64,000 nucleotides of DNA, from contig BEHN01000003.1 in NCBI GenBank assembly GCA_002898535.1, forward strand, positions 192,952 through 256,951. Reading direction: 5' to 3'. A program made the position numbers and the translations under genes. This document shows, one piece after another, positions 7,453 to 60,128 of this stretch. Source of the DNA: a bacterium HR11 (GTDB lineage: Bacteria > Acidobacteriota > HRBIN11). Numbering within the stretch: the first letter of the stretch is position 1; the number at the start of each line of letters is the position of its first letter. The notes under the pieces are model-generated. The model had not been told where the DNA came from. It searched no databases and was given only the letters and a program-made list of their open reading frames with translations.

Positions 7453-9798
7453 ATGAACGGGCGTCGTCTGTCCGGGTGGGTCCTGGGCCTGTGGGTCCTG
7501 GGAGCCGCCCTGGGATGGGCCCAAGAGGCCCGTCGCATCGCCCAGATTCGATTTGAGGGTCTGCATCGGGTCCCGGAGAGCACGGCTCGGTACTATATCC
7601 AGAGCCGGGAGGGGGACTTGTACGACCCGGCGATGGTCCGGCAGGACTTTCGCCGTCTCTGGGCGGCCGGCTTCTTTGAGGACCTGCGGGTCGAGACGGA
7701 AGAGGGCCCCGACGGAGTCCGCCTCGTCTTTCGGGTCCAGGAGAAGCCCGTCATCGAGCAGGTCGTGTGGCCCGAAAAGGTCAAGGGCCTCCGCATCGAG
7801 GACATCCATAGCAAGATGAACGAGAAGGGCCTGACGTTGTATGACGGGGACCTCTACGACGCTTACCGGGTCCATCGGGTCGAACAGCTCATTCGGCAGA
7901 TGCTGGCCGAGAAGGGCTACCGCTTCCCCGAGGTCCGGCCCGTCCGGACGCCGCTATCGGAGACGTCGGTCCGGCTGACGTGGCAAATCGACCCCGGCGA
8001 GAGTCTCCGGGTCGGGCGGGTCGTCTTCGACGGCAATCAAGCCTTTTCAGACGATAAACTCCGGGGGGTCGTCCCCATTAAGCCTTCATCGCTGTGGGCG
8101 CGCATCACGGGTAAGGACAAGTATGACCCTCAGAAGATCGAGAAGAGTCAGGAAGCGCTTCAGAACTTTTATTATGACCACGGGTATCTGGACTTTCGGG
8201 TCGGGGAACCGAGGGTCGAGGCCTATACGGGCCGCTCCTGGTGGAACGGGGCCCCGGTCCGTCGCCTGCAGGTCGTGTTCCCTGTCAGCGAGGGCCCGCC
8301 GTACCGCATCGGGGAGGTGCGGCTGACGGGCGTCCGGGCCTTTTCCGAGGCGGACCTCCGGAAGCTTCTGCGCTTCCGGTCCGGTCAATGGTTCCGACAG
8401 AGCGCCTTTCGCAAGAGCCTCCAAGATATCCAGGCTGCCTACGGTGAGAAGGGATACCTCTTTGTCGGAATCTATCCGGACCTCCAGCCCCGCGTGGAAG
8501 ACGGGACCCACTATGTGGACGTGAATCTACAGGTCCAGGAAGGGAAGCCTCAGGTCGTGCGCCGCATCGAGTTCCAGGGCAACACGTACACCCACGACCT
8601 GGTCGTCCGCCGGGAGCTGGAGACGCAGGAGGCCCACGTCATCAATACGAAGCTCTTCCGGCGGGACCTCCAGAAGATTTACCGGATCGGGTACTTCGAC
8701 AAGGTCGAGCCCGACATCCGGCCCGTCGCTGGCCGGGACGACCAGGTCGACGTCGTCATCAAGGTCAACGAAAACAAGCGGAACCAGATATCGGCCGGTG
8801 GCGGTTATAGCCAGCTGGACGGTCTGTTCGGGCAGTTGGGCTTTGCGACCCGGAACCTCTTCGGGACGGGCAAGTCCTTCGACTTCAGCCTCCAGTACGG
8901 CAAGCGGATCAAGACGTACTACCTGTCCGTCCTGGACCCCTACTTCCTGAACAGCGACTGGCAGGTCGGCCTCAGCGTGTACAACACGTGGAACAACTAC
9001 TTCATCTATGAACGGCGGGACCGGGGCGGGAGCCTCGTCATCGGCTGGCCCCTGACGAAGGACCTGGACTTTCGGGTGGGGTACAGCTACAGTCAGATCC
9101 GGCTGGAGAACGTGAATCCCCAGCTCCTGGCCAGCGGTCTCCTGGGGATTCGCCCTGAGGACTTAGTCCGGGCCCGGGACGACAGCCGCGTGACGCCTCA
9201 GCTCATTTACAACTCGCTGGGCGACCCCCTGGACCCGACGGAGGGGATTTACGCTACGGCGGCGGTGGCCTATGCCGGCGGACCCCTGGGCGGGAATGTC
9301 TACATCGTGGCACCCTCATTCCGGTGGCGGCAGTACTTCAAGGTCAACCGATGGTCCCATCGATTCGCTTACAACGTCGAGCTCGGCTGGGTCACTGGGT
9401 ACGGCGGCCGGCCCGTGCCCTTCTACGAGCGGTTCTTCCTGGGGGGCGACTTCACGATCCGGGGCTACGACTTCCGGACGGTCGGGCCCATCGACCCCCA
9501 GGTCAGTACCCGTTATACCGTCGGTGGGACGAAGTACGCCCTCTTTAATCTGGAGTACATCGTGCCCGTAGGGGAGTCGCCCCTTCGGTTGGTGGCGTTC
9601 TGGGACGGCGGCAACGCCTACGCCCCGGGGGAGGCCCTCGACCCCCTCAAGTTCCGTTTTTCGACGGGCCTGGAGCTCCGGATCGTGATCCCGATGCTCA
9701 TGCAACCGATCCGGTTTATCTTTGCCCGGAACTGGAATCGGGGCCCCGTTCAGGCCCCGGCGTGGAATTTCCGTTTCGGCTTCGGCCTCAACTTTTGA
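7453..9798 (+). CDS. bamA: Outer-membrane protein assembly factor BamA (POTRA repeats plus Omp85 barrel)
   Basis: Signal peptide, POTRA-like repeats, C-terminal barrel ending ...NFRFGFGLNF. ATG 7453 lies 4 nt after GAGGTGG; the alternative GTG 7441 overlaps the clpC stop. Confidence 0.85.
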   Translation: MNGRRLSGWVLGLWVLGAALGWAQEARRIAQIRFEGLHRVPESTARYYIQSREGDLYDPAMVRQDFRRLWAAGFFEDLRVETEEGPDGVRLVFRVQEKPVIEQVVWPEKVKGLRIEDIHSKMNEKGLTLYDGDLYDAYRVHRVEQLIRQMLAEKGYRFPEVRPVRTPLSETSVRLTWQIDPGESLRVGRVVFDGNQAFSDDKLRGVVPIKPSSLWARITGKDKYDPQKIEKSQEALQNFYYDHGYLDFRVGEPRVEAYTGRSWWNGAPVRRLQVVFPVSEGPPYRIGEVRLTGVRAFSEADLRKLLRFRSGQWFRQSAFRKSLQDIQAAYGEKGYLFVGIYPDLQPRVEDGTHYVDVNLQVQEGKPQVVRRIEFQGNTYTHDLVVRRELETQEAHVINTKLFRRDLQKIYRIGYFDKVEPDIRPVAGRDDQVDVVIKVNENKRNQISAGGGYSQLDGLFGQLGFATRNLFGTGKSFDFSLQYGKRIKTYYLSVLDPYFLNSDWQVGLSVYNTWNNYFIYERRDRGGSLVIGWPLTKDLDFRVGYSYSQIRLENVNPQLLASGLLGIRPEDLVRARDDSRVTPQLIYNSLGDPLDPTEGIYATAAVAYAGGPLGGNVYIVAPSFRWRQYFKVNRWSHRFAYNVELGWVTGYGGRPVPFYERFFLGGDFTIRGYDFRTVGPIDPQVSTRYTVGGTKYALFNLEYIVPVGESPLRLVAFWDGGNAYAPGEALDPLKFRFSTGLELRIVIPMLMQPIRFIFARNWNRGPVQAPAWNFRFGFGLNF

Positions 9799-10584: not shown

Positions 10585-11079
10585 ATGTGGGTCAAGCCGG
10601 AAGTCACGGCCGCGTGGGTCGCCTTGGACACCAATCAGGTCCAGGCCCTCCTACCCCACCGGTATCCCTTCCTGATGGTCGACCGGGCATTTCTACACCC
10701 GGACCGATGGGAGGCCCTGGGGTTGAAGGGCGTGACCTACAATGAGCCCTTCTTCCCGGGCCATTTCCCGCAGGAGCCGATTCTGCCAGGGGTCCTGATG
10801 GTCGAGGCCATCGCCCAAGTGGCGGCCCTGACGGTCTTGTGGCGTCACCCCGAGGCCCGGCATCGACCCATTTACTTATTGGGGATCGAGCAGGCCCGGT
10901 TCCGGCAGAAAGTCGTGCCGGGCCATCTCTTAGAAGTTCACGCATGGCTGGAGCGCCGGCGGGGCGTATTTGTGTGGTTCAAGGGCGTCATATGGGTCGG
11001 GGATCAAGTCGTCGCCGAGGCCCGTCTCTCGACGGGTACGCCGGTTATCGCTGAGGGGAGGGATGGGAGTGAGGATTGA
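10585..11079 (+). CDS. fabZ: 3-hydroxyacyl-ACP dehydratase FabZ
   Basis: [10 protein letters not shown]...[18 protein letters not shown] hot-dog fold signature. Confidence 0.85.
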
Positions 11080-11842
11080 TGCCACGGCCCGGGTCGCCCC
11101 GACGGCCGAGCTGGCCGATGGGGTCGTCGTGGGCCCGTATTGCATCATCGGCCCGCAGGTACGCATCGGGGAGGGGACCGAACTCCGGAGTCACGTCGTC
11201 ATCGACGGGGTCGTGACGATCGGACGGCAGAACGTCATCTATCCCTTTGTCACCATCGGCTTGGAACCCCAGGACGTCAAGTACGGGGGCGAACCGACCC
11301 GGGTCGAGATCGGCGACCACAACGTGATCCGGGAATTTGTGTCCATCCACCGGGGGACGCCTGGGGGCCGGGGGGTGACGACCGTCGGGAATCATGTATT
11401 CCTAATGGCGTATGCCCATGTCGCCCATGACTGTCAGGTCGGAGACTATGTCATCATGACGAATGCCGCCTCCCTGGCGGGGCACGTCGTCGTCGAAGAC
11501 CACGCCGTCATCGGGGCCTTCAGCGGCATCCATCAGTTTTGTCGGGTGGGCCAATATAGCTTTATCGGCGCCTTCTCGGCCGTCAGTCAGGACGTCCTCC
11601 CCTTTGCGAAGGTCGCCGGCAATCGGGCGCGCGTGTACGGGGTCAACACCCTCGGTCTCCGGCGGGGGGGCTTCCCGACCGAGGTCATCGACCTGATCAA
11701 GCGGGCGTTCATCCTCCTGCTACGGTCCCGTCTACCTATCCCGGAGGCCCTGCGACGGATCCGGACCGAGCTTCCGCCTCATCCGGAATTGGAGGCCTTG
11801 TGTCGCTTCGTCGAAACCTCCCAGCGAGGGATCGTGCAATGA
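11063..11842 (+). CDS. lpxA: Acyl-ACP--UDP-N-acetylglucosamine O-acyltransferase LpxA
   Basis: Left-handed hexapeptide repeats ([35 protein letters not shown]...). Start MGVRIDA at 11063 overlaps the fabZ 3' end by 17 nt. Confidence 0.85.
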   Translation: MGVRIDATARVAPTAELADGVVVGPYCIIGPQVRIGEGTELRSHVVIDGVVTIGRQNVIYPFVTIGLEPQDVKYGGEPTRVEIGDHNVIREFVSIHRGTPGGRGVTTVGNHVFLMAYAHVAHDCQVGDYVIMTNAASLAGHVVVEDHAVIGAFSGIHQFCRVGQYSFIGAFSAVSQDVLPFAKVAGNRARVYGVNTLGLRRGGFPTEVIDLIKRAFILLLRSRLPIPEALRRIRTELPPHPELEALCRFVETSQRGIVQ

Positions 11843-49492: not shown

Positions 49493-49981
49493 ATGTCGGA
49501 GACCCGTTTCAAAATCGGTGAACTCGCCCGGCACGCGGGCGTGACGCCCCGGACGATTCACTACTACGTCCACATCGGCCTCTTGCCGCCGCCCAAGGGA
49601 GGGGGCCGGTACAGCTACTACACCGAGGAGCACCTCCGGCGTCTCCGCATCATCCGTCAACTCCAGCGTTACTTCATCCCCCTCCGTCGCATCAAGGAGG
49701 CCCTGCGTCTGAAGTCTTTAGAAGAACTCGAAGAAGAAGTCGCCCGGGCCCACCGCGTGGCCCACGAGTACCGGGATGCCCTGCGGACCGCCATACCGAT
49801 GACGCCCGAGCGGACGACCTGGGAACGCATCGTCCTCCAGGACGGCCTGGAGCTTCACTACCGTCTCCCGATGGCCACGGGCGTCCAGCAGTTCATCGAG
49901 TTCATCCTCCAGCACGCCCGGACGTGGCCCCCGGCGGAGCCGTCGGAAGGACCCGATGCAGGCGGGGGAGTCAGGGGGTAG
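49493..49981 (+). CDS. MerR-family transcriptional regulator
   Basis: FKIGELARHAGVTPRTIHYYVHIGLLPPP HTH and coiled-coil dimerisation helix. Confidence 0.75.
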   Translation: MSETRFKIGELARHAGVTPRTIHYYVHIGLLPPPKGGGRYSYYTEEHLRRLRIIRQLQRYFIPLRRIKEALRLKSLEELEEEVARAHRVAHEYRDALRTAIPMTPERTTWERIVLQDGLELHYRLPMATGVQQFIEFILQHARTWPPAEPSEGPDAGGGVRG

Positions 49982-50054
49982 GGATGGGGAATGGGAATTA
50001 GGCATTGGGAATGAGGAATGGGGAATGGGGGATGGGGAGTGGGATGAGGCATCG

Positions 50055-50082
50055 GGGGAAGTCGGGGCTCTCCGACTTCCCC
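50055..50082. terminator. Bidirectional terminator hairpin between convergent merR-like and roadblock genes
   Basis: ggggaagtcgg-ggctct-ccgacttcccc (perfect 11-bp stem), preceded by a (GGGAATG)n heptamer run at 49980-50045. Confidence 0.45.
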
Positions 50083-50084
50083 GT

Positions 50085-50432
50085 CTACCCTGGCCGCAGG
50101 CCCAAGGTGCGCCACAGGCGGGGCCAGTCGGTCGTCCGGGGGTCGAGGAGGACGCCCCGGAAGCCGCCCTGGGTCATGACGATGCCGACGTCGCCGCCGA
50201 CGTAGACCCAGAAGTCCTGGGGGAGCCAGTTGTGGTCCGTCAGGGCCGTCAGGTTGCTGGCCAGGGTGTGGAGGGTCATGGTGACGGTGGCGCAGTACTG
50301 GGCCAGCGTGGCCAGGAGTTGGGGGCTGACGGGTTGTCGGGTCCGGTAGGCCGTGTACTGGCCGTCGGGCGTGAAGACGAAGGCGACCTGGACGCCGGGG
50401 ATGTCCATCAATTCATCCAAGGAGTCGGTCAT
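50085..50432 (-). CDS. Roadblock/LC7 (MglB-like) domain protein
   Basis: 115 aa, MTDSLDELMDIPGVQVAFVFTPDGQ... alpha-beta-beta-alpha-beta-beta pattern typical of Roadblock/LC7. Confidence 0.6.
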   Translation of the reverse strand: MTDSLDELMDIPGVQVAFVFTPDGQYTAYRTRQPVSPQLLATLAQYCATVTMTLHTLASNLTALTDHNWLPQDFWVYVGGDVGIVMTQGGFRGVLLDPRTTDWPRLWRTLGLRPG

Positions 50433-50681
50433 GGGGCCTCCCTGCCGGGCGGGGGGAGATGCGGGCCGGGTCCCCGGGGAGGGGTTCCCGGCCCCGCTCG
50501 TCCGGGCGGGCGCTCCGCTCCGAACCCCGCTCGTCAGAGCGGGGTCCCAGGAATCCCCCCTCCGCTCCGGCCCCCGCTCGTCCGGGCGGGGGTCGGGAAG
50601 ATGCAGGATGGGGCGTCGGGGGGGACCCGGCTTCCCTCATCGCTGGATGGGGCGCGGGCCCCGACCCCCACGCCGGGGTGT

Positions 50682-53600
50682 TCACGGTCCGTACAGCAAC
50701 AGGTTAAAGGCCCGGGTGATGAAGACGGCCATCTGGGCCCGGTTGACGGGGTCCAGCGGACAGTAGGTCGTCGCCGTGCACCCGCCGGTGACATTGTTCG
50801 CCCACATCCAGTGCACATGCCGACAGTAGAACACCCCGTCGGGCACGTCCGTGAAGTGGTTGGGCGCGCTGTCGGTGCAGTCCCAGCTCCCGCCCGGGCC
50901 GCTCCCGGACAGCGGCGGGTCCGTCCCCAAGACGGCCCGGCTGATAAAGATGGCCATCTGGGCCCGGTTGACGGGGTCCAGCGGACAGTAGGTCGTCGCC
51001 GTGCACCCGCCGGCGATGTTGTTGGCCCACATCCAATGGACATGGGGACAGTAGAACACCCCGTCGGGCACGTCCGTGAAGTGGTTGGTCGCATTGTCCG
51101 TGCAGTCCCAGCTCCCGCCCGGACCGCTCCCGGACAGCGGCGGGTCCGTCCCCAAGACGGCCCGGCTGATAAAGATGGCCATCTGGGCCCGATTGACCGT
51201 CTGAAGCGGGCAGTAGTCGCTGGCCGTACAGCCGCCCGTCACGCCCCGGTGCAACAGCGTCTCCACCGCCTTGTAGTAAAACACATTCGGCGCCACGTCG
51301 GCAAAGCTCGGCCCGATGTGGAGCGTCCACGTCTTGGGCGGCTGGCTTCCGCTTCCTACGACGCTCACTGTCTCATCGAACGTCACGTCCCTGTGGCCCG
51401 TCCCCGTCCGGGTCCCCGTGATGGCGTAGCAGTCGCCCGTAGCCGTCTGGCAGTCGGCCGTCCCCCCGGCCGGGATCGTCCCGTAGGCGGCCGCCGCGTC
51501 CGTCAGCGACGCCACGACCCCCGGCGGGTCCACCACGTTGGAAGCATTGCCATTCAATATATGTGAGGTGTTGTCGTTATTCCTCCAGGCCGGCACGACC
51601 GTCACGGCTTCGCCCGAGTCCCACACGCCGTTGCCGTCGGGGTCCCCCGCGATCGCCAGGCCCGTCCCCGCCAGCGGAGGGGGCGCCTCATAAGAGCCGA
51701 TGTCGCACACGGCGACGCCGTCGCCATCGCCATCCTGGGGGCGGGTGACGCCGTTTTGCGATTGGTTGTTCACAGGTACGTTATTACAGGTGGTGTTATC
51801 GCCGGCATCAATCGCCGGGCTATCGGGATTAAGCGGGAAGTAGGCCGGCGAGCCGGTCGGTGTGCCAAGCATAGGGTCCACGCCGATGACGTTGCCGTTG
51901 ACGCCGTTGACAAGGCCGCAGGCGTGGGCGCTGTCTTCGATGAGGTTGTTCTTGGAGGTAGGGTCGACAGTTCCGCCGAGCTGCCCGCAGTCCCCACCGC
52001 TCGTGCTGTTGGCGATGATGGTGTTCTTGAGCGTGACCATACCCGAAGTAAGGTCGATGCCGCCGCCGCGGATGCCGGCGCTATTTCCACTCACCGTACA
52101 ATTCGTCATCCTGAGGGTGGCCCAACTACCAAAGCCGGTCTTGGCATTGGCAATGCCGCCGCCGTAGCCGCCGGCGCTATTTCCACTCACCGTGCAGTTT
52201 GTCATCGTGAGCACGCCTGAATTCGAAATGCCGCCGGCGACGTAGACGACGCTATTTCCACTCACCGTACAATTTTCCATCGTGAGCGTGCCTTTATTAT
52301 TCGAAATGCCGCCGCTGCCACCGCCGGCGCTATTTCCACTCACCGTGCAATTTTTCATCGTGAGCGTGCCGTCATTGTAAATGCCGCCGCCCCCGCCGCC
52401 GCTGCCGGTGCCATTTTCACTTACCGTGCAGTTTGTCATCGTGAGCGTGCCTGAATTCGAAATGCCGCCGCCGGCGCCGCCGGCGATATTTCCACTCACC
52501 GTGCAGTTTGTCATCGTGAGCGTGCCTGCATTCAAAATGCCGCCGCCGGAGTCAAAGCTGGTGAGACCGTTTGCTATCGTCAGGCCAGATATCTGCACCG
52601 TCTTACCGCTGCTTATGTTGAACACCCTCGTCGCATTATTCCCGCTCACGGTCAACTGATCCGCACCAGGCCCAACGATCGCCAGATTCTTGTCTATCAA
52701 AAGCTCGCCCAGCGTGGAATCAAGCGTGATCGTGCCGGTCACGGTGATCTGAATCGTGTCCCCATCACCGGCAGCAGCTATCTCTCCCCTCAGGCATTGC
52801 GAGCAATTACTCGCATCCGATGTACTACTCACCGTACGCAAATTCCCTACCCCCAAAACATATTCATAAGAACCTACAAAACCTCCCTGGTCCTTCGCAA
52901 CAACCGTGAAAACAAATATACCTGCCTGATCAGGTGTCCCCGAGATCACCCCACCCGTGGAAAGGCTCAGCCCATTCGGCAGGTTAGAGCCAGAAGCCAG
53001 TGAAAAATTGTATGGAGAAGTACCCCCAACTGCAGAGATGCTCTGGTTGTAATTCTGACCAATGATCGCAAATGGCAGTGAGGTCGGGGAAAGGAAAATA
53101 TTTGCCTCCGACGCCCCCATGTCAACCGTGTTGTTGACTACTCTCGCAGAGCCGCGCTGGTCCGTCGTGAGCGGGTTCCCGTCGGGGTCTTTGGCCAGAT
53201 CGTTGCTACCGCGATCAATTGCAGGGCTATTACCCAGCAAGGCGTGTGTCTGTGTGGGCCCACCGTAGTTCCCCAGCGGCAGCAGCTTGGGATCTTGCCC
53301 CGTGATGTAATGGGTTGAGCCTGGTGGAAGCGATGTACCGGTTGTGTCCTTGATCAGGTTGAAGTCGCCGGAGCTGACCGGCCCATCGATGTCTGGATGA
53401 CCGCCGTTTGACACGTTGTTTGCCACTATGCTGTTGTTGAGGTTGAGCGTGCCTACATTGTGAATGCCGCCGCCGCCGCTGGATGTATTTCCACTCACTG
53501 TGCAGTTTGTCATCGTGAGCGTGCCTGCATTGAGAATGCCGCCGCCGGCGCCGGCGCTATTTCCACTCACCGTGCAATTTGTCATCGTAATCGTGCCAAC

Positions 53601-54263
53601 GTTTTCAATGGCGCCGCCGCTACCGGCGCTGTTGCCGGCGAAGGTGCTGTTGATAACGGTCAGTATGCTGTTGTTTCGGATGGCGCCGCCGCCGGTGGCG
53701 CTATTGCCGGCGAAGGTGCTGTTGATGATCTTCATAACGCCGACGTTATAGATGCCGCCGCCGAGGATGTGGGCGCTGTTACCGGCGAAGGTGCTGTTGG
53801 TGACCGTCACCGTGCCGGCGTTGGAGATGCCGCCGCCGTAATCGAAGGAGCTACCCTTTCCATTTGCTATGGTGATGTTTTGCAGGGTAAGATTTGCGCC
53901 GCTGTTTACAACCATGACCCGCACGCTGCCCCCGCCGCTGATAGCGATCGTCCCACCGCCGTTAATCGTCAGCGTTCCCGCGCCGCTCACGATGTTTGGT
54001 AAGGTGGAGCCAAGCGTAATCGTCCCACCCCCTGTGATGAAGATGATGGTATCGTCGTCGGGGCTTCCGGCGAAGCAGTCCGCGTTGGCAGGCGTGTTGT
54101 TTGCCGCCAGGATGGCCTCGCGCAGGGTGCACTGGAAGTCGTTGTTGGTGTTATCCGCCAGCGAGGTGACGATGTAGACCGCCGCATAGGCCGACCGCAT
54201 GCTTTGCCCGGACAGCCACAGTGACACGACGAGCAGAGTGAGAAGAGAGAAAGTTCTTTTCAT
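50682..54263 (-). CDS. Secreted 1193-aa surface protein: signal peptide, long right-handed parallel beta-helix (PbH1) repeat region, Ig/lectin-like middle, three C-terminal SLH-like Cys-containing repeats
   Basis: Start MKRTFSLLTLLVVSLWLSG after GAGGTGA; the tool's start at 54638 would lie upstream of the promoter. PbH1 motifs GGGIxNxGTLTMTNCTVSGNSAGG repeat more than 15 times. C-terminal repeats FTDVPDGVFYCPHVHWMWANN..GGCTATTYCPLDPVNRAQMA.FI.RA occur three times. Confidence 0.7.
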   Translation of the reverse strand: MKRTFSLLTLLVVSLWLSGQSMRSAYAAVYIVTSLADNTNNDFQCTLREAILAANNTPANADCFAGSPDDDTIIFITGGGTITLGSTLPNIVSGAGTLTINGGGTIAISGGGSVRVMVVNSGANLTLQNITIANGKGSSFDYGGGISNAGTVTVTNSTFAGNSAHILGGGIYNVGVMKIINSTFAGNSATGGGAIRNNSILTVINSTFAGNSAGSGGAIENVGTITMTNCTVSGNSAGAGGGILNAGTLTMTNCTVSGNTSSGGGGIHNVGTLNLNNSIVANNVSNGGHPDIDGPVSSGDFNLIKDTTGTSLPPGSTHYITGQDPKLLPLGNYGGPTQTHALLGNSPAIDRGSNDLAKDPDGNPLTTDQRGSARVVNNTVDMGASEANIFLSPTSLPFAIIGQNYNQSISAVGGTSPYNFSLASGSNLPNGLSLSTGGVISGTPDQAGIFVFTVVAKDQGGFVGSYEYVLGVGNLRTVSSTSDASNCSQCLRGEIAAAGDGDTIQITVTGTITLDSTLGELLIDKNLAIVGPGADQLTVSGNNATRVFNISSGKTVQISGLTIANGLTSFDSGGGILNAGTLTMTNCTVSGNIAGGAGGGISNSGTLTMTNCTVSENGTGSGGGGGGIYNDGTLTMKNCTVSGNSAGGGSGGISNNKGTLTMENCTVSGNSVVYVAGGISNSGVLTMTNCTVSGNSAGGYGGGIANAKTGFGSWATLRMTNCTVSGNSAGIRGGGIDLTSGMVTLKNTIIANSTSGGDCGQLGGTVDPTSKNNLIEDSAHACGLVNGVNGNVIGVDPMLGTPTGSPAYFPLNPDSPAIDAGDNTTCNNVPVNNQSQNGVTRPQDGDGDGVAVCDIGSYEAPPPLAGTGLAIAGDPDGNGVWDSGEAVTVVPAWRNNDNTSHILNGNASNVVDPPGVVASLTDAAAAYGTIPAGGTADCQTATGDCYAITGTRTGTGHRDVTFDETVSVVGSGSQPPKTWTLHIGPSFADVAPNVFYYKAVETLLHRGVTGGCTASDYCPLQTVNRAQMAIFISRAVLGTDPPLSGSGPGGSWDCTDNATNHFTDVPDGVFYCPHVHWMWANNIAGGCTATTYCPLDPVNRAQMAIFISRAVLGTDPPLSGSGPGGSWDCTDSAPNHFTDVPDGVFYCRHVHWMWANNVTGGCTATTYCPLDPVNRAQMAVFITRAFNLLLYGP
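50704..51330. repeat. Three ~222-bp near-identical tandem repeats encoding the C-terminal SLH-like modules
   Basis: gataaagatggccatctgggcccggttgacggggtccagcggacagtaggtcgtcgccgtgcacccgccgg recurs at ~50716, ~50943, ~51163. Confidence 0.75.
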
Positions 54264-54267
54264 GGTT

Positions 54268-54477
54268 TCACCTCGTCTGCGCCGGACCTGGACAGCCGGG
54301 AGGGCCAGCGACCGTCCATGTCGGGGGGATGCCGCCGACCTTGAAATCCTCCTGCAGGAGGGTGTCAGGCGCCATCGTGGCGACCGCCATGAAGCCGGCA
54401 TGGCCGGCCATGACCAGGGCCAGGAGGCTCGCCAGGCTCCATGGGGTCCATGGATGGCATCGGAGGTGGATGCGCAT
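54268..54477 (-). CDS. Putative 69-aa membrane protein between the sigma-54 promoter and the beta-helix gene
   Basis: ATG 54477 after ACGAGGTCGG; hydrophobic WSLASLLALVMAGHAGFMAVATMA; its TGA overlaps the RBS of the downstream gene. Confidence 0.35.
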   Translation of the reverse strand: MRIHLRCHPWTPWSLASLLALVMAGHAGFMAVATMAPDTLLQEDFKVGGIPPTWTVAGPPGCPGPAQTR

Positions 54478-54621
54478 GGTCCGACCTCGTGACGGGCGGG
54501 ATGCGGGGCATCCAGCCCGGGTGGGGTTGGGTCCATGCGGTTTCCCCGGATGGGGGAGTGACCCACCGACCGCGATTCACTCCTCTTGGGTGTGGGGGAT
54601 GGGGGGCGGCGGGGGGATTCA

Positions 54622-54637
54622 AGCAAGAGGCGTGCCA
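54622..54637 (-). promoter_or_regulatory. Sigma-54 (-24/-12) promoter
   Basis: Minus strand reads ttTGGCACGcctcTTGCTtgaa = TGGCACG-N4-TTGCT, an exact match to the sigma-54 core consensus. Confidence 0.65.
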
Positions 54638-54693
54638 AAGGGCGGGGGTGGGGTGGGGAGCGGAGGCGGGCGGGGGGCGGGGGCGGTCCCGGT

Positions 54694-54745
54694 TGTCACG
54701 GTGACAGGGGGTGTGACGTCACATGGGACAGCCTGTGACATGTCA
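54694..54745. promoter_or_regulatory. Three palindromic candidate EBP-binding sites (upstream activator sequences)
   Basis: TGTCAC-g-GTGACA (54694-54706), TGTGACGTCACA (54712-54723), TGTGACATGTCA (54734-54745); 60-110 bp upstream of the -24 element; the last overlaps the regulator stop codon. Confidence 0.5.
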
Positions 54746-57700
54746 TTCGGCGTGGGGGTCGGGGGGTTTGTCTTTTCCGCGCAGGCCCCAGCGGGCCAGT
54801 TTGCGGTAGAGGGTCATGCGGCTGAGGCCGAGGCGGCGGGCGGCCTGGGAGATATTGCCGTGGGTTTCTTCCAGGGCGGCCAGGAGGCGACGCTTTTCGG
54901 CGTCGGGGTCGGGTTCGCCGGGGGCGGCGGGGGCCGGGGGCCGCAGGTAGGCCGGGAGGTCCTCGACCCGGAGGACGGGGCCGGGGCAGTGGACGAGGGC
55001 GGACTCGACGACGTTGCGGAGTTCCCGGACGTTGCCGGGCCATGGATAGTCGAGCAGGGCGTCCAGGACGGCGCGGCTGATCTCGACGGGCGGGCGGTCC
55101 CGCTGTTGGGTCCATTCTCGGGCGAAGTGGACGGCCAGGAGGGGGATGTCGGTGCGGCGTTCCCGCAGGGGCGGCAGGTGGATTTCGGCGACCCGGATGC
55201 GGTACAGGAGGTCCTGTCGGAAGCGGCCGGCGATGACTTCCTGGTCGAGGTCTCGATGGGTGGCGGCGAGGATGCGCACGTCGATCTTCCGGGGGCGGGT
55301 CTCGCCGAGGCGGATGATTTCTCGTTCCTGGAGGGTCCGGAGGAGGTTCCGTTGGACGTCCAGGGGCATGTCGCCGATTTCATCCAGGAAGAGGGTCCCC
55401 CCGTGGGCCGATTCGAAGAAGCCGACCTGGTCGGTGACGGCGCCCGTGAAGGCGCCCTTGCGGTGGCCGAAGAGCTGGCTACTCAGGACGGATTCGGTCA
55501 GGCCCCCGCAGTTGAGGGCGATGAAGGGACGGTCCCGGCGGGGGCTGAGGTCGTGGAGGGCGCGGGCGACGAGTTCCTTGCCCGTGCCGGTCTCGCCGAC
55601 GATGAGGACGGTCGTGTCGAAGGGGCCGAGTTCTTCGATCTGGCGGTAGACCTGGAGCATCGGGGGGCTCTGGCCGACGAGGCCGTAGCGGGCGTAGGTG
55701 GCCTCCGACATGCGGTAGGGGTCGTAAATTTCGGAGATGTCGTAGAGGAAGAGGAGGTGTCCCCCGGGGTGGGTCGGGTCGGCCTGGATTTCGATGTCGG
55801 TCCAGTAGCGGTGGCCGTCGGGGCCGACGAAGCTGACGGAGGTCCTGGGAGCCGCCTCGGCGGGCGACGTGAGGAGGTGCCGCAGGGCCCGCAAGTCCTC
55901 GGGGGCGAAGGGGAGGGCGGTCTCCCAAGCTTGACCCTGGAGGGCCTCGGCGGATCGGCCGAGGAGTCGTTCGGCGACTCGGTTGGCGAAGACGACGCGG
56001 CCTTGGGCGTCGAGGGTCAGGACGCCGACCCGGAGGCGATGGAAGACCATGAGCAGGTCTTCATGGGATTGACGGAGGTCGGCGTGGGCCTGGGTGAGTT
56101 CTTCATGGGATTGAGTGAGCCGGACGTTCATCTCGGCGAGGGCTTCCTTTTGAGCCTGGACCTCGGCCGTGCGTTGGGCCACCGTGGTTTCCAGGAGGCG
56201 GGCCCGGCGCGTGAGGGCATGCAGGCGCCATCGAATCAGGCCGGTGATGAGGCCGGTCAGGCCGAGGGCGCACAGGACATAGAAGTAGCCGGTCTGGTAC
56301 AGGTAGGGCCGCAGGGTGAGGTCCAGGGCGGCCCCGGTTTCGTTCCAGAGGCCGTCGTCGTTGCTGGCCTGGACCCGGAAGCGGTAACGGCCGGGGGGCA
56401 CGTGAGTGTAGTAAGCGGACCGTCGGGTCCCGGCCTCGACCCAGTCGGCGTCGTAGCCCTCCAGGCGATAGCGGAAGCGGACTTTCAGGGGGTTCCGCAG
56501 GCTCAGGGCGGTATAGCGGACCTCCAGGTCGTTTTGGCCCGGCGGGAGGACGACGGCCCCGTTAGGGGGGACGGAGAGGCCCCGGGCCGTCCGGAGGGCC
56601 TCGATGTAGACGGGCGGGGGAACGGGATTGTCGGCCCGGGGGTCGATACGGGCCAGGCCCCGAAGGGTCGGGAACCAGAGGATGCCGTCGGGGGTCTTCG
56701 CGCCGGCGGGTTGACTGCCGCCGGCGCATTCGGCCAGGGTCAGGCCGTCCTGGGTGTCGTACAGCACGGCCGGGACGGTCGGAGCGGCGCCCGTGGCGAC
56801 GGCCTCCAGGGCCGATGGGTCGACCCGGAAGATGCCCTTGTTGCTACAGACCCAGAGGCGGCCCCGGTCGTCTTCGAGGACCTGGGTGATGAAGTCGTCG
56901 GGCAGGCCCGTGGCCGTCGTAAAGGCGTACCAGCGGCCGTTCCGGTAGAGGTCCAGGCCGCCGCCGTAGGTGCCGACCCAGACCCGACCGGCGGCGTCGA
57001 CGTGGACGGCCCGGACGTGGTCGTGGGAGAGCCCGTTCCGGGTCGTGAAGTTCTCGAAGCGGCCGTCGGCCCATCGGCTGAGGCCCCCGCGGGTCCCGAC
57101 CCAGAGGGCGCCGGTGCGGTCCTGGGTGATGAAACGGACCCAGTCATGGACGAGGCCGTCCGACGTCCGATAGACCCGGCGGACGGCATCGTTTTCGAGG
57201 ACGGCCAGACCCGCCTCGGTCCCGACCCAGATTCGGCCGGCCGTGTCTTCGTAGAGGGCCAGGACGGCATCGCTGGGGAGGCCCTGCCGCATCGTCAGAC
57301 GAACGATTTCGAAGGCGGCGGTCCGACCCCCGCCGGCGGGGCGGGCTGGACGGGGACGAAGCCGGACGAGGCCCAGGCCGCCAACCCAGAGGTCGCCCGA
57401 GCGGGTCCGCAAGAGGGACCATATACATCCGCCGGGCAGGCCGTCCCGTTCGGTCCAGTGCTCGCTACGGCCGTCGGGCCTCCAATGGACCAACCCCCCG
57501 CAGGTCAGGCCCAACCAGAGGCCGTCCTCGTCGTCGCTGACGACGGGGACGAAGACGTCGCCCGGGAGGCCGTCCGCCTGCCCAAAGGTCCGTACACGGG
57601 GGACCCGTCCCTGATAGAGGCCCTCGCCGTCGGTCCCGACCCAGAGGTTACCCTCCCGGTCTTCCAAGAGGGCTCGGACGGTCCGACGGCGAACGCGGTC

Positions 57701-58654
57701 GTCGGGGCTCGCGGGTTCCCATCGGCCGTCGGTCCAGCGGAACAGGCCGGCCTGCCATGCCCCGGCCCAGAGACGGCCCCGGCGGTCCTCATAGACGGTC
57801 CGGACCAAGGCCGGGAGACCCTGCTCGGGACCGTAGCGAGTCCACCGACCCTCGTGATAGCGGAGGAGGCCGAGGCCCTCGGTAGCGAACCACCAGGCCC
57901 CGGCCCGGTCCTGGTAGATCTGCCATACGAGGGGCGCCGGGCCATAGGGGAAGGGCAGGACCGTCCATTGGCCGTCCCGATAGACATACAGACGGTCGCC
58001 GACGCCCCACCAGAGGCCGCCCGCCGTATCGAGGTTCTGAAATCCGATGGGGCCTTGCCGGATTTCCGGCCGGATCGGGAGGGCGTGAAAACGGCCCTGC
58101 CGATAGTAGGCCGGCCCCTGGGCGGTCATGACCCAGACCGTCCCTCGAGGGTCGACGGCGACGGCGTAAGCGTTCCTATCGGGGAGGCCCTCGGTCGTCG
58201 AGAAGGCCTCGAAGCGGCCGGCGGCATAGCGGTAGAGGCCGGCATCCAGGGTGGTCACCCAGAGGGCGCCCGTCGGGTCTTCCACCAGGGCCAGGACTTG
58301 GGTCCCCCGCAGGACCGGCGTGTTCGTCGGGCGGAAGACGGTAAACTGTACGCCGTCAAAGCGGGCTAAGCCCCCGAAGGTCCCGACCCAGAGGTAGCCG
58401 TCGCGGGTCTGCAGGAGGGCCGTGACCGAATTCTGGGGCAGGCCAGCGCCGGTCCCCCAAGCGGTCCAGAGGTAGCGGTCCGGTGCGACGTCGCCGTCTG
58501 ACGGGGGCCGGGGGATCGGGGCCGCCGCGATGCCCGAGGATAGAAGGAGTCCCTGCCCCAGCCAGGCGTACAAGACAACAAAAATGATCCGAGGGGTGAC
58601 GGGTCCAGTGTACCGGTGGGCGGTCCCACCAGTGTCAGACTCTGCGGGGCCCAT
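54743..58654 (-). CDS. Membrane-anchored sigma-54-dependent transcriptional activator with extracytoplasmic double beta-propeller (Reg_prop) plus Y_Y_Y sensor, TM, coiled-coil, PAS, AAA+ (GAFTGA) and Fis-type HTH
   Basis: N-terminal TM RIIFVVLYAWLGQGLLL; repeated ...DGYLWVGTFGGLARFDG... propeller blades; Y_Y_Y block VRFRYRLEGYDADW...GRYRFRVQA; second TM; sigma-54 module VGETGTGKE...RKGAFTGA...GTLFLDEIGD; C-terminal ISQAARRLGLSRMTLYRKL. No HisKA/REC. Confidence 0.85.
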   Translation of the reverse strand: MGPAESDTGGTAHRYTGPVTPRIIFVVLYAWLGQGLLLSSGIAAAPIPRPPSDGDVAPDRYLWTAWGTGAGLPQNSVTALLQTRDGYLWVGTFGGLARFDGVQFTVFRPTNTPVLRGTQVLALVEDPTGALWVTTLDAGLYRYAAGRFEAFSTTEGLPDRNAYAVAVDPRGTVWVMTAQGPAYYRQGRFHALPIRPEIRQGPIGFQNLDTAGGLWWGVGDRLYVYRDGQWTVLPFPYGPAPLVWQIYQDRAGAWWFATEGLGLLRYHEGRWTRYGPEQGLPALVRTVYEDRRGRLWAGAWQAGLFRWTDGRWEPASPDDRVRRRTVRALLEDREGNLWVGTDGEGLYQGRVPRVRTFGQADGLPGDVFVPVVSDDEDGLWLGLTCGGLVHWRPDGRSEHWTERDGLPGGCIWSLLRTRSGDLWVGGLGLVRLRPRPARPAGGGRTAAFEIVRLTMRQGLPSDAVLALYEDTAGRIWVGTEAGLAVLENDAVRRVYRTSDGLVHDWVRFITQDRTGALWVGTRGGLSRWADGRFENFTTRNGLSHDHVRAVHVDAAGRVWVGTYGGGLDLYRNGRWYAFTTATGLPDDFITQVLEDDRGRLWVCSNKGIFRVDPSALEAVATGAAPTVPAVLYDTQDGLTLAECAGGSQPAGAKTPDGILWFPTLRGLARIDPRADNPVPPPVYIEALRTARGLSVPPNGAVVLPPGQNDLEVRYTALSLRNPLKVRFRYRLEGYDADWVEAGTRRSAYYTHVPPGRYRFRVQASNDDGLWNETGAALDLTLRPYLYQTGYFYVLCALGLTGLITGLIRWRLHALTRRARLLETTVAQRTAEVQAQKEALAEMNVRLTQSHEELTQAHADLRQSHEDLLMVFHRLRVGVLTLDAQGRVVFANRVAERLLGRSAEALQGQAWETALPFAPEDLRALRHLLTSPAEAAPRTSVSFVGPDGHRYWTDIEIQADPTHPGGHLLFLYDISEIYDPYRMSEATYARYGLVGQSPPMLQVYRQIEELGPFDTTVLIVGETGTGKELVARALHDLSPRRDRPFIALNCGGLTESVLSSQLFGHRKGAFTGAVTDQVGFFESAHGGTLFLDEIGDMPLDVQRNLLRTLQEREIIRLGETRPRKIDVRILAATHRDLDQEVIAGRFRQDLLYRIRVAEIHLPPLRERRTDIPLLAVHFAREWTQQRDRPPVEISRAVLDALLDYPWPGNVRELRNVVESALVHCPGPVLRVEDLPAYLRPPAPAAPGEPDPDAEKRRLLAALEETHGNISQAARRLGLSRMTLYRKLARWGLRGKDKPPDPHAE

Positions 58655-58814
58655 CGTCCGGCTCCGGCCATCGGAACGCAGGCCACATCCTTGACCCCGC
58701 CCCGGTGGGTGCGCCGATAGCATAAGGGGAATGGCGGACGGGAGCAAGATGCGAGATGCGACCCCTCAGGGCGGGGTCCCGGCAGGGGTCCCAGGTCCCG
58801 AGTCCGGCAACGGA

Positions 58815-60128
58815 CTATCGACCTGTTTCGGTTGTAGGCAGGGGCGCCTGCACTCCTGGAGTCAGCCGTTCCAAGCCGTCCAGGTAGGGCCGCAGGGCCG
58901 GCGGGATGAGGACCGAGCCGTCGGCCTGCTGGTAGTTCTCCAGGAGGACGACGATAGTCCGTCCGACGGCCAGGCCCGAGCCGTTCAGCGTGTGGACGTA
59001 CCGGGCCTTGCCGCCCCCGGCCGGACGGTACCGCAGGCCCATCCGCCGGGCCTGAAAGTCCCCGCAGTTCGAGCAAGACGAGACCTCCAGCCACCGCTGT
59101 TGGCTCGGGAGCCACGCCTCGATGTCGTACGTCTTGGCCGCCGCAAAGCCCATGTCGCCCGTGCACAGGAGCATGACCCGGTAGGGGATGCCCAGCCGCT
59201 GGAGGACCGTCTCGGCGTGCCGGGTCAGCGTCTCCAGGTCGTCGTAGGACCGCTCCGGCGTCGTGATGTGGACGAGCTCGACCTTATCGAACTGATGCTG
59301 ACGGATGAGGCCCTTGCTTTCCTGGCCGTACGTACCGGCCTCCCGTCGGAAGCAGGGGCTCCAGCAGACGAGCCGGATCGGTAGGTCCTTCTCCGACAGC
59401 GTCTCCTCCCGGAAGAGGTTCGTCACGGGGACCTCGGCCGTCGGGATCAAAAACAGGTCGTCAGACGGGACGGCGTAGAGGTCCGCCTCGAACTTCGGGA
59501 GCTGGCCCGTGCCGGTCATCGTCGCCCGGTTGACGAGATAGGGGACCCAGACTTCGTGGTAGCCGTGTTCCCGGATGTGGAGGTCCAGCATGAACTGGGC
59601 GAGGGCCCGGACGAGTCGGGCGCCCCAGCCCTTGAACAGGGGGAAACGGGCGGCGGCGACCTTGGCCGCCCGCTCCAGGTCTAAGATCCCTAAGAAGCGG
59701 CCGAGGTCCACGTGGTCCCGGACGGGAAACGAAAAGGACGGGATCTCCCCCCAGCGGCGGACCTCGACGTTATGCGAGGCGTCCGGTCCGACGGGGACGG
59801 ACTCATGGGGGACGTTGGGGACCCGCAGGAGCCAGGCCTCGACCCAGGCGTCCAGCTCGGCGACGCGGGCGTCCAGCTCCTCGATGCGGGCGCTGATGCG
59901 CTGATTCTCCTCCAGGAGGTCCGTCGGGTCCTGGCCGGCCTGCTTGAGGCGACCAATCTGACGGGTCAGTTCGTTTCGACGGTGCTTGAGGGCCTCGACC
60001 TCTTGAAGGAGCGACCGGCGACGGGCGTCCTTCTCGAGGAATTCGTCGAGGCCGACGTCCACGCCCCGTTCGGCCATCTTGCGGCGGACGTATTCGACGT
60101 TTTCCCGGACCCACCGGAGGTCTAACAT
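58815..60128 (-). CDS. serS: Serine--tRNA ligase
   Basis: N-terminal coiled-coil MLDLRWVRENVEYV...; class II motifs (...FRREAGTYGQ...GLIRQHQFDKVE...); GGTGG before the ATG. The tool's 60227 start is repeat read-through. Confidence 0.9.
   Translation of the reverse strand: MLDLRWVRENVEYVRRKMAERGVDVGLDEFLEKDARRRSLLQEVEALKHRRNELTRQIGRLKQAGQDPTDLLEENQRISARIEELDARVAELDAWVEAWLLRVPNVPHESVPVGPDASHNVEVRRWGEIPSFSFPVRDHVDLGRFLGILDLERAAKVAAARFPLFKGWGARLVRALAQFMLDLHIREHGYHEVWVPYLVNRATMTGTGQLPKFEADLYAVPSDDLFLIPTAEVPVTNLFREETLSEKDLPIRLVCWSPCFRREAGTYGQESKGLIRQHQFDKVELVHITTPERSYDDLETLTRHAETVLQRLGIPYRVMLLCTGDMGFAAAKTYDIEAWLPSQQRWLEVSSCSNCGDFQARRMGLRYRPAGGGKARYVHTLNGSGLAVGRTIVVLLENYQQADGSVLIPPALRPYLDGLERLTPGVQAPLPTTETGR

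Follow-up and report, generated by a model that had tools for sequence, protein, structure and literature searches.

On the minus strand of the window, that is, the whole stretch of 64,000 nucleotides analysed here, a -24/-12 element and the short repeats ahead of it most probably represent, respectively, a sigma-54-dependent promoter and the enhancer (upstream activating sequence, UAS) of the activator whose gene lies immediately upstream. The classical architecture of UAS and -24/-12 element had been proposed in a sequence-only reading of this DNA, and it gains support from the identity of the activator, from sites placed within enhancer range, from a layout that recurs in homologous loci and from covariation of the repeats with the recognition helix. 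A promoter with its enhancer would be a known and ordinary kind of system; the wider interest appears to lie in the activator, whose predicted membrane anchor would be the unusual part. A second unusual feature is the absence, in a close relative, of the entire block from sensor through promoter to target. The features discussed are collected in Table 1.

Table 1. Features of the locus, with positions in the window
Feature	Position	Strand	Description or basis
Activator gene, membrane-spanning sigma-54 activator (bEBP), predicted	54743..58654	minus	Pfam scan, hydropathy, motifs, PDB matches
Site 1	54734..54745	minus	TGACATGTCA at 54745..54736, perfect 10-bp palindrome including the TGA stop; family-type unit TGTCACA at 54740..54734
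Site 2, TGTGACGTCACA	54723..54712	minus	TGTGAC-GTCACA, perfect 12-bp palindrome, two half-sites
Site 3, TGTCACcGTGACA	54706..54694	minus	TGTCAC-c-GTGACA, 13-bp palindrome (6+1+6), two half-sites
Spacer, last site to promoter	54638..54693	minus	56 nt; sequence, tandem-repeat rows 54640..54686
Sigma-54 (-24/-12) promoter, TGGCACGcctcTTGCT	54637..54622	minus	Exact consensus match
69-aa ORF	54268..54477	minus	First frame past the promoter; ORF list, sequence
1193-aa secreted beta-helix/SLH protein gene	50682..54263	minus	Beta_helix 1.7e-15, SLH 1.1e-7 (Pfam)
DUF2173 (Roadblock-like) gene, last in block	50085..50432	minus	Pfam DUF2173 1.4e-15
8.9-kb block (activator gene, sites, promoter, three downstream ORFs)	49954..58857		Missing from the collinear contig of a close relative

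The promoter element and the repeat array

An exact sigma-54 consensus promoter with canonical GG/GC spacing had been claimed for the minus strand, and TGGCACGcctcTTGCT was indeed found there. Its GG lies at 54636-35 and its GC at 54624-23, giving the spacing GG-N10-GC, and it agrees with the extended consensus TGGCACG-N4-TTGCW at 12 of 12 specified positions. The scan for TGGCAC-N5-TTGC that had been proposed along with the claim was run across both strands of the 64-kb window and returned a single match, at the named site, against 0.047 expected (mean of 300 Markov shuffles). The element is intergenic and faces the downstream ORFs: on the minus strand, which carries all of them, the activator stop at 54743 precedes it and the ORFs beginning at 54477 and 54263 follow. 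The customary distance of a start site from the -12 element would place the start of transcription near 54611. No sigma-70-like promoter was found in 54000-55000. Since rpoN was not found among the scanned ORFs of the 64-kb window, the presence of sigma-54 in this organism is deduced solely from the intact GAFTGA-bearing activator.

The three palindromes described upstream of the promoter are likewise present on the minus strand, their centres 23 bp (sites 1 and 2) and 17.5 bp (sites 2 and 3) apart. Counted from the putative start at 54611, the centres fall at about -89, -106 and -130, which would be the classical enhancer range. The array as a whole comprises five to six GTSACA half-sites (TGTCACA, TGTGAC-GTCACA and TGTCAC-c-GTGACA), with the first unit 3 nt past the activator stop. 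Site 1 differs in register from sites 2 and 3, as it holds one clean TGTCACA unit that begins after the stop codon. The proposal that a palindrome overlaps the stop of the activator is thus sustained only in part: TGACATGTCA (on the plus strand, TGTGACATGTCA marks the same place) contains the TGA at 54745..54743, but the TGTCACA unit starts beyond it, and the overlap holds only if TGACATGTCA is the functional unit. The spacer between array and promoter is very C-rich on the minus strand, with GGGCGG-type repeats on the plus strand, and no IHF-like AT-rich site is visible by eye within 54638..54693.

Palindrome density, also raised in the sequence-only reading, was checked in the window. Generic palindromes with arms of at least 5 are common (243 in the window), whereas TGTSAC-N0-1-GTSACA pairs are confined to sites 2 and 3. 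It might be supposed that a GC-rich genome yields palindromes by chance, with a -24/-12 look-alike beside them, and three palindromes in 60 bp are indeed ordinary (shuffle mean of the maximum 3.4); generic density does not differ significantly from shuffles and was given no weight by itself. The significance rests on the clustering of GTSACA half-sites, not on palindromes as such: 23 GTSACA/TGTSAC half-sites occur in the window (42.7 expected), and six of them fall within 50 bp at the array, against a maximum of 4 and a mean of 2.15 in shuffled sequence. Together with the one exact promoter match in the right place and orientation, a layout reproduced at about two dozen homologous loci, and unbiased 6-mer counts that disfavour an artefact of motif choice, this leaves chance a highly improbable explanation. 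A second candidate site, GTGACCGTCAC at 53800-53810, was discarded; it lies in the repeat region of the large downstream gene, with neither flanking TGT/ACA nor a -24/-12 partner.

In sites 2 and 3 one half-site follows the other at a distance of only 6-7 bp, which is tighter than the dyads of about one turn in NtrC-type sites, and the actual pairing may therefore be between neighbouring sites, as GTCACA-N5-TGTCAC with 11 bp centre to centre. Neighbouring half-sites (GTCACA...TGTGAC) could also pair in an 8-bp stem, as would suit a terminator or stability element formed, in RNA or DNA, where the activator transcript ends. The predicted fold, however, is no better than that of shuffles (z = -0.67; an equal or better fold in 49 of 200 shuffles), a palindrome with a 0-1-nt spacer is unable to form a hairpin alone, there is no U-tract behind the sites, and the minus strand shows no terminator-like site in 54000-55000. 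Searching the whole window against Rfam at gathering thresholds gave no match. On account of the shuffle-like fold and the lack of a minus-strand terminator-like site, a structural role was rejected, and we give it hardly any credence.

The activator and its homologous loci

The ORF upstream of the array is a sigma-54 activator that carries all the sequence hallmarks of a working bEBP. Its start was set by choice at ATG 58654, the open frame extending back to TTG 58747, and the ORF is unbroken across 1303 codons with every catalytic motif present. The domain order is TM1, about 750 aa of Reg_prop beta-propellers and Y_Y_Y, TM2, coiled coil, PAS, AAA+ (GAFTGA) and HTH_8. A Pfam scan gave Sigma54_activat at 3e-66 with AAA_lid_14, and the AAA+ module shows Walker A (GETGTGKE, 1051), GAFTGA (1098) and DEIG (1122), followed by a C-terminal HTH_8 (8.7e-16, residues 1282-1320); the sensor part matches Reg_prop (8e-53) and Y_Y_Y (1e-16). 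Hydropathy peaks at aa 54-72 and 820-838 flank the sensor, and by prediction the protein crosses the membrane and holds a large beta-propeller/Y_Y_Y sensor in the periplasm; with about 750 aa of periplasmic sensor between two membrane segments, the activator should therefore be membrane-anchored. On comparison with the PDB, ZraR (1OJL) is the best solved match to the AAA+ and DNA-binding part (7.8e-88), and the N-terminal part matches the sensors of Bacteroides thetaiotaomicron HTCS proteins (4A2L, 3V9F and 3OTT).

The common picture of a bEBP is that of a soluble ring ATPase in the cytoplasm. At least 30 full-length homologues of the window activator likewise carry the AAA+ and DNA-binding modules on a membrane-spanning protein with a large periplasmic beta-propeller sensor, and the named homologues come from Acidobacteriota. 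No full-length orthologue was found when GTDB genomes were scanned with the whole activator, a scan in which generic EBPs dominated the matches through the FLDEIGDM pattern, and a search for close orthologue fragments with the C-terminal 450 aa against a protein database returned nothing above 54% identity. Membrane-anchored or Reg_prop-containing sigma-54 activators were not found in the open-access literature, which is no proof of their absence; the main text of a survey of transmembrane transcription regulators (PMC10269533) contains no mention of sigma-54, HTH_8 or enhancer-binding proteins.

The layout of the window recurs in about 25 homologous loci, where 3-8 short repeats ending in ACA follow the activator stop and are themselves followed by a -24/-12 element. 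The tabulated set comprises 26 loci, the window among them. In 23 of these, 3-8 half-sites form an array 36-111 bp long and a GG-N10-GC candidate follows; the gap from array to promoter is 27-88 nt in 22 of these 23, mostly 49-88 nt, with 57 nt in the window. Of the 26 loci, 17 have a candidate that scores 9 of 12 or better, six have a weak one scoring 8 of 12, and three have none. The first repeat lies 2-35 nt past the stop in 15 of the 26, and close abutment of the array to the activator stop is thus recurrent, while overlap with the stop is not conserved as such. About 40% of the family loci have no array directly past the activator stop. An unbiased 6-mer count over 11 loci (the window and 10 relatives) found repeats ending in ACA to be the most enriched words between the activator stop and the next gene, the exception being locus L091 with GTCTCA/TGAGAC.

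Using 46 non-identical loci, residue 3 of the recognition helix was compared with the two bases before ACA. Helices of the form x-R-A-T pair with AGACA (at least three copies in 14 of 27 loci), x-R-S-T with GGACA (6/10), G-R-T-T with GAACA or AAACA (3/3) and S-R-P-T with TTACA (2/2). The form x-R-M-T, found in two loci only, accompanies T[G/C]ACA in the window and T[A/T]ACA in locus L090, the half-sites of the two differing at the central base; L090 contains TGTGACGTC, identical to the first nine bases of site 2 of the window. P0022 is the second M-type homologue. A permutation test of the association between helix and half-site in 29 loci gave p <= 1e-5, a value that ignores shared ancestry. 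As the bases before ACA covary with helix residue 3 of the adjacent activator across the 46 loci, the comparison argues that the repeats would be the activator's own sites.

The same comparison bears on the possibility that the promoter is real and the palindromes are operators of another factor, CRP/FNR-like or some other dimeric HTH protein, with the activator acting elsewhere or from other sites. TGTGA...TCACA does resemble CRP half-sites, and palindromes of 12-13 bp are shorter than typical NtrC-type dyads. The CRP consensus, however, is TGTGA-N6-TCACA and the site reads TGTGA-CG-TCACA, with N2 rather than N6, and on this spacing a CRP-like operator was rejected. More generally, an unrelated factor would not yield repeats whose sequence follows the changes in the neighbouring activator's recognition helix, and the position of the array is fixed between the activator stop and the -24/-12 element in homologous loci. 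Operators of another factor are for these reasons very unlikely.

Downstream genes and the 8.9-kb block

The likely main target of the promoter is the gene of the 1193-aa protein, which has a signal peptide, right-handed beta-helix repeats in 25-aa units and SLH repeats at its C-terminus. The gene starts at ATG 54263 after GAGGTGA and contains internal repeats of 75 nt and 225 nt; its GC3 rises from 0.58-0.79 over the first 2.4 kb to 0.82-0.91 at the SLH end. The presumed targets in the relatives are giant secreted proteins of FG-GAP, HYR, PKD or collagen-like type. The product of the last gene, DUF2173, is 28% identical (BLASTP, E 7e-19) to a product of L090, the only other locus with the same type of recognition helix, where the DUF2173 homologue is the first gene past the promoter.

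The 69-aa ORF is equipped with a GAGG ribosome-binding site, its N-terminus resembles a signal peptide, and its GC1/2/3 of 0.66/0.59/0.80 is typical of coding sequence here (overlapping frame 0.65/0.73/0.67). It has no Pfam match; it may encode a small secreted protein, or it may be what is left of an earlier target gene. Counting against the promoter reading, the large gene is preceded by a leader of about 348 nt, and the status of this first ORF is uncertain.

Contig L144 of the close relative that lacks the block carries a SerRS 95% identical to that of the window, and aligns to positions 60140-58858 and 49953-49488 of the window at 82-88% nucleotide identity, the two stretches being separated by only about 53 nt. 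The finding of the 8.9-kb block in one of two close relatives but not in the other suggests that units of this kind, made up of sensor, promoter and surface protein, serve as modules that can be exchanged to remodel the cell surface.

It could also be argued that the locus is a decaying relic in which the target was replaced or truncated, with the 69-aa ORF left as a stump of it and the beta-helix gene, lower in GC, acquired later, so that the promoter may now drive little of consequence. The signal-peptide-like start of the ORF and its stop just ahead of the ribosome-binding site of the large gene would fit such a history, as would the low GC3 over the first part of that gene (against about 0.85 elsewhere), a gene order unlike that of L090 and the relative without the block. 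Against it stand the intact activator ORF with its complete catalytic motifs, the perfect consensus match of the promoter and the clean half-sites, and a large-gene ORF that is itself intact with its own ribosome-binding site and signal peptide. Decay is thus considered unlikely, if somewhat less so than the alternatives above.

Proposed mechanism and relation to known systems

If the locus works as a sigma-54 promoter under its adjacent activator, the propeller domain would sense an extracytoplasmic ligand, and the signal would pass through TM2, the coiled coil and PAS to assembly of the AAA+ ring on the half-site array, the six DNA-binding domains matching roughly six half-sites. DNA between array and promoter, roughly 90-130 bp, would loop out, and the GAFTGA loops would remodel the sigma-54 holoenzyme at TGGCACG-N4-TTGCT. 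Transcription would then run from near 54611 through the 69-aa ORF and the beta-helix/SLH gene, and probably through the DUF2173 gene. Because the activator would be membrane-tethered, sites abutting its own gene would hold regulator and target DNA together.

Taken further, and as a tentative proposal only, these proteins may form an undescribed family of membrane-anchored sigma-54 activators that act essentially in cis. Since the protein would insert into the membrane during its synthesis, its own gene would be held there and only the abutting enhancer would be within reach of the tethered AAA+ ring; sensor, enhancer, promoter and target would be a cassette moved and lost as one, and a single helix residue (A, S, T, P or M), by reading the two bases ahead of ACA, would largely set target specificity. 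How a hexameric ring and a DNA loop could be assembled at the membrane is the question that such a membrane-spanning activator poses. The comparative data offer a simple recognition rule, one helix residue against two bases, along with natural specificity variants.

Amongst known systems, the NtrC/ZraR-type bEBPs (glnAp2-type) share the AAA+ module with GAFTGA, the C-terminal Fis-type HTH_8 and a GG-N10-GC promoter preceded, at about 90-130 bp, by several dyad sites. The activator gene also adjoins its target operon, as is usual in reconstructed sigma-54 regulons, an adjacent activator gene being the standard arrangement for sigma-54 operons with palindromic sites (PMC4641369). Unlike these proteins, the window activator has neither a receiver domain nor a partner kinase, its regulatory part being the periplasmic sensor between two predicted membrane segments, and its sites are short TGTSACA-type units as against the 17-bp dyads of NtrC.

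The HTCS proteins of Bacteroides (BT4663; 4A2L, 3V9F, 3OTT) have the same periplasmic tandem Reg_prop beta-propeller and Y_Y_Y between membrane segments, and similarly combine extracytoplasmic sensing and DNA binding on a single polypeptide. The window activator, however, has no HisKA, HATPase_c, receiver or AraC-type output, and for want of these domains it is not an HTCS, the sensor alone being in common; its cytoplasmic part consists of PAS, Sigma54_activat, AAA_lid_14 and HTH_8. Its output would proceed through ATP-driven remodelling of the sigma-54 holoenzyme, and its target would be a surface protein and not a polysaccharide utilisation locus.

One-component regulators of the BguR/SusR type span the membrane and join an HTCS-like propeller/Y_Y_Y sensor to a DNA-binding output with no phosphorelay, and, as here, the stretch from the regulator gene to the first target gene holds a conserved motif (bioRxiv 10.64898/2026.01.10.698779). 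BguR itself, from Bacteroidota, has a GerE-type helix-turn-helix and is described as ATP-independent (bioRxiv 10.64898/2026.01.10.698779). In contrast, the window activator inserts PAS and an AAA+ sigma-54 module and uses HTH_8, and its named homologues are from Acidobacteriota.

To our knowledge, neither beta-helix/SLH proteins nor the target families of the relatives are among those listed for sigma-54 as 'controller of the bacterial exterior'. In its source (PMC3162934), that phrase describes a theme rather than a mechanism, and the presumed target here, a cell-envelope protein with beta-helix and SLH repeats, would be in keeping with it.

Promoter and site array at the end of the activator gene

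The sequence-only reading had placed a consensus sigma-54 promoter and three upstream palindromes at the end of an activator gene, one of them overlapping its stop codon. On reading the minus strand, all of these elements were found where they had been placed, with palindrome centres 23 and 17.5 bp apart as claimed; the observation is confirmed and its interpretation as a sigma-54 promoter with activator sites is supported.

Features of the activator locus and its downstream genes (window positions)
Feature	Position	Strand	Remarks
Activator stop codon TGA	54745..54743	-	read directly
Site 1, TGACATGTCA	54745..54736	-	stop codon inside
Site 2, TGTGACGTCACA	54723..54712	-	read directly
Site 3, TGTCACcGTGACA	54706..54694	-	read directly
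Spacer, 56 nt	54638..54693	-	extremely C-rich on minus strand; between site 3 and promoter
-24/-12 promoter, TGGCACGcctcTTGCT	54637..54622	-	GG-N10-GC spacing
69-aa ORF	54477..54268	-	signal-peptide-like N-terminus; coding-like GC3 (0.80)
1193-aa secreted beta-helix protein with SLH repeats	50682..54263	-	ATG at 54263 after GAGGTGA
DUF2173/Roadblock-like gene	50432..50085	-	preceded by 250-nt gap

Considering both strands, the window contains a single exact TGGCAC-N5-TTGC, against 0.047 per window in shuffled sequence. The argument from palindromes fails for palindromes as such, which shuffles match: the window (66% G+C) has 243 perfect palindromes whose arms reach 5 or more, and three per 60 bp are also typical of shuffles. 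It holds for the half-site GTSACA (S = G/C) common to all three sites, which is rarer than expected window-wide (23 observed, 42.7 expected) and occurs six times inside 50 bp at the array, where the shuffle maximum is 4. No TGTSAC-N0-1-GTSACA was found elsewhere in the window. The sole other GTSAC-N-GTSAC pair, GTGACCGTCAC at 53800..53810, lies inside the repeats of the large gene without the outer TGT/ACA and is probably a coincidence.

The array is centred at ~-89 to -130 and looks cognate to the adjacent activator. The half-site spacing inside sites 2 and 3 is just 6-7 bp, a geometric oddity, so the functional dyads may be formed across adjacent sites (GTCACA-N5-TGTCAC, centres 11 bp apart) instead of inside single palindromes. 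Very C-rich minus-strand DNA surrounds the promoter (54638..54693 and 54560..54620), with tandem-repeat (TRF) rows at 54640..54686; the GGGCGG/GGGGT runs on its plus strand could in principle form G-quadruplexes, and a C-rich spacer of this kind is not seen in lower-G+C relatives. Neither a sigma-70-like promoter nor a minus-strand terminator was detected in 54000-55000, the entire window gave zero Rfam matches, and the RNA fold of the site region was no better than shuffled (z = -0.67).

Homologous loci and the recognition helix

A protein search detected ~35 full-length homologues sharing the activator's architecture (37-48% identity); all those with a named taxon belong to Acidobacteriota (Blastocatellia, Thermoanaerobaculia). 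Ten of their loci were fetched, along with 51 from a metagenome scan using a family-specific PAS-region alignment. In an unbiased count for each of the first ten, the top-enriched 6-mer between stop codon and next gene, relative to the rest of the locus, was a short repeat ending in ACA, with GTCTCA/TGAGAC as the variant in one locus (L091).

Layout was tabulated for 26 loci, window included, scoring promoters as matches out of 12 to TGGCACG-N4-TTGCW. Arrays comprise 3-8 half-sites spanning 36-111 bp, and a GG-N10-GC candidate follows in 23 of the 26 (17 scoring at least 9/12, six just 8/12), at a gap from the last half-site of 27-88 nt in 22 of these 23, mostly 49-88 nt and 57 nt in the window. 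Since the first half-site lies 2-35 nt past the stop codon in 15 of the 26, an array abutting the activator's own stop is, judging by layout, a family habit; the proposed interleaving thus recurs as close abutment, whereas the literal overlap of the window is not family-wide. At L081 a small antitoxin-like gene (Unstab_antitox, 8976..9307) lies between activator stop and array, the latter being pushed to ~520 nt past the stop.

The C-terminal helix-turn-helix regions of the homologues were aligned and NNACA pentamers tabulated over 330 nt past each stop at 46 non-identical loci. At least three copies were present of AGACA in 14/27 loci with helix x-R-A-T, GGACA in 6/10 with x-R-S-T, GAACA/AAACA in 3/3 with G-R-T-T and TTACA in 2/2 with S-R-P-T. 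Helix x-R-M-T, with GNI rather than GNR in the preceding helix, is limited to two loci, the window with T[G/C]ACA and L090 with T[A/T]ACA; within L090, TGTGACGTC also reproduces site 2 of the window over its initial nine bases. A label-permutation test on 29 loci gave p <= 1e-5, a value that ignores shared ancestry and so overstates independence. Helix class and motif still go together between loci that differ greatly in G+C and in their neighbouring genes. Such covariation is what one would expect of repeats that serve as sites for the adjacent activator, and it is difficult to reconcile with their being sites of some other factor. There is an apparent recognition rule in the family turning on one residue. 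An array directly downstream is absent from ~40% of loci, and therefore some members must act elsewhere.

Downstream genes and the 8.9-kb block

The stop of the 69-aa ORF overlaps the ribosome-binding site of the large gene; the ORF has no Pfam match and may encode a small secreted product or represent what is left of a former target gene. The large gene is mosaic in composition, with GC3 at 0.58-0.79 through its initial 2.4 kb and at 0.82-0.91 towards the SLH end; a central part lower in GC3 than the neighbours (~0.85) hints at a mosaic history. The gene also carries 75-nt (25-aa) repeat arrays (52152-52548, 53444-53838) and a 225-nt SLH duplication (50709-51197). In the gap before the DUF2173 gene, three GC-rich hairpin-like repeat copies (CCCGCCCGGACGAGCGGGG...GGAGCGGAG, 50440..50600, minus strand) may be REP-like elements or terminators.

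In six relatives (L081, L083, L084, L089, L091, L092) the first gene past the promoter encodes an ankyrin-repeat protein of 122-140 aa (Ank_2 down to 2e-33), a gene with no counterpart in the window's block and one behind which very large secreted proteins usually lie; in L090 it encodes a DUF2173 protein homologous to that of the window (28% identity, E 7e-19), whose gene is found past the large gene in the window, not ahead of it. Next in several relatives come giant secreted proteins whose domains are FG-GAP, HYR, PKD, beta-helix or collagen-like. The window codes for an LpxA-type acyltransferase (Hexapep + Acetyltransf_11, 10934..11842, plus strand) and an SLH-domain protein (50682..51400, minus strand), a combination suggestive of a diderm whose surface proteins are anchored through SLH domains; among named homologues, the nearest come from Acidobacteriota.

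A database relative of the window's seryl-tRNA synthetase (95% identical) lies on L144, a close relative's 10.3-kb contig that is collinear with the window on either flank at 81-88% nucleotide identity. Between serS and a MerR-family gene it has ~53 nt, against 8.9 kb in the window (49954..58857), and what it lacks is exactly the activator, sites, promoter and three downstream ORFs; by this comparison, the block is dispensable. It contains no integrase or tRNA gene. Because serS is likewise directly upstream of the activator in the distant L091, deletion in the L144 lineage is as plausible as insertion in the window. The left breakpoint falls in the final codons of serS, and therefore the SerRS C-terminal tails differ. 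Right inside the block's right end the heptamer ATGGGGA recurs in degenerate form, in an array of 8.7 copies (plus strand, 49984..50043), and a run of similar repeats (GGCAATGA / CCCATTGA) precedes the site array in L081 (~9260-9350).

The activator and known regulatory systems

The ORF at 54743..58654 encodes a sigma-54 activator (Sigma54_activat, 3e-66; AAA_lid_14; HTH_8; Walker A/B; GAFTGA), the nearest solved relative of its AAA+/DNA-binding part being ZraR (1OJL). Its N-terminal two-thirds, an unexpected part, holds multiple Reg_prop repeats and Y_Y_Y between two hydrophobic segments (residues 54-72 and 820-838), and no receiver, HisKA or HATPase domain was found in it; the protein therefore reads as a membrane-spanning, one-component activator. 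An intact bacterial enhancer-binding protein (bEBP), a consensus -24/-12 promoter and a cognate-looking half-site array are present. A periplasmic signal would pass through TM2 and a coiled coil to the PAS domain, the AAA+ ring would build on the array (six DNA-binding domains, five to six half-sites), a DNA loop would span the C-rich spacer, and the sigma-54 closed complex would be opened in an ATP-dependent manner, giving a transcript whose predicted start is near 54611.

As a design, promoter and enhancer are familiar and add one more instance, such an array and promoter being the standard sigma-54 arrangement (PMC4641369). The probable targets suit a theme in which sigma-54 governs proteins of the envelope and surface, in agreement with PMC3162934. 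Databases label these homologues only 'sigma 54-interacting transcriptional regulator', and no description of membrane-anchored or propeller-sensor bEBPs was found in the searchable literature. The activator family, its apparent one-residue rule and the cassette-like presence/absence of the block make this instance a variant meriting modest follow-up. The N-terminal region of the activator matches 4A2L, 3V9F and 3OTT, which are periplasmic sensors from the hybrid two-component systems of Bacteroides; however, the activator is not such a system, since the kinase, receiver and AraC modules of the latter are all missing. Among the membrane-spanning BguR/SusR-type one-component regulators (bioRxiv 10.64898/2026.01.10.698779), BguR has a GerE helix-turn-helix output, whereas the output here is the ATP-driven one of sigma-54.
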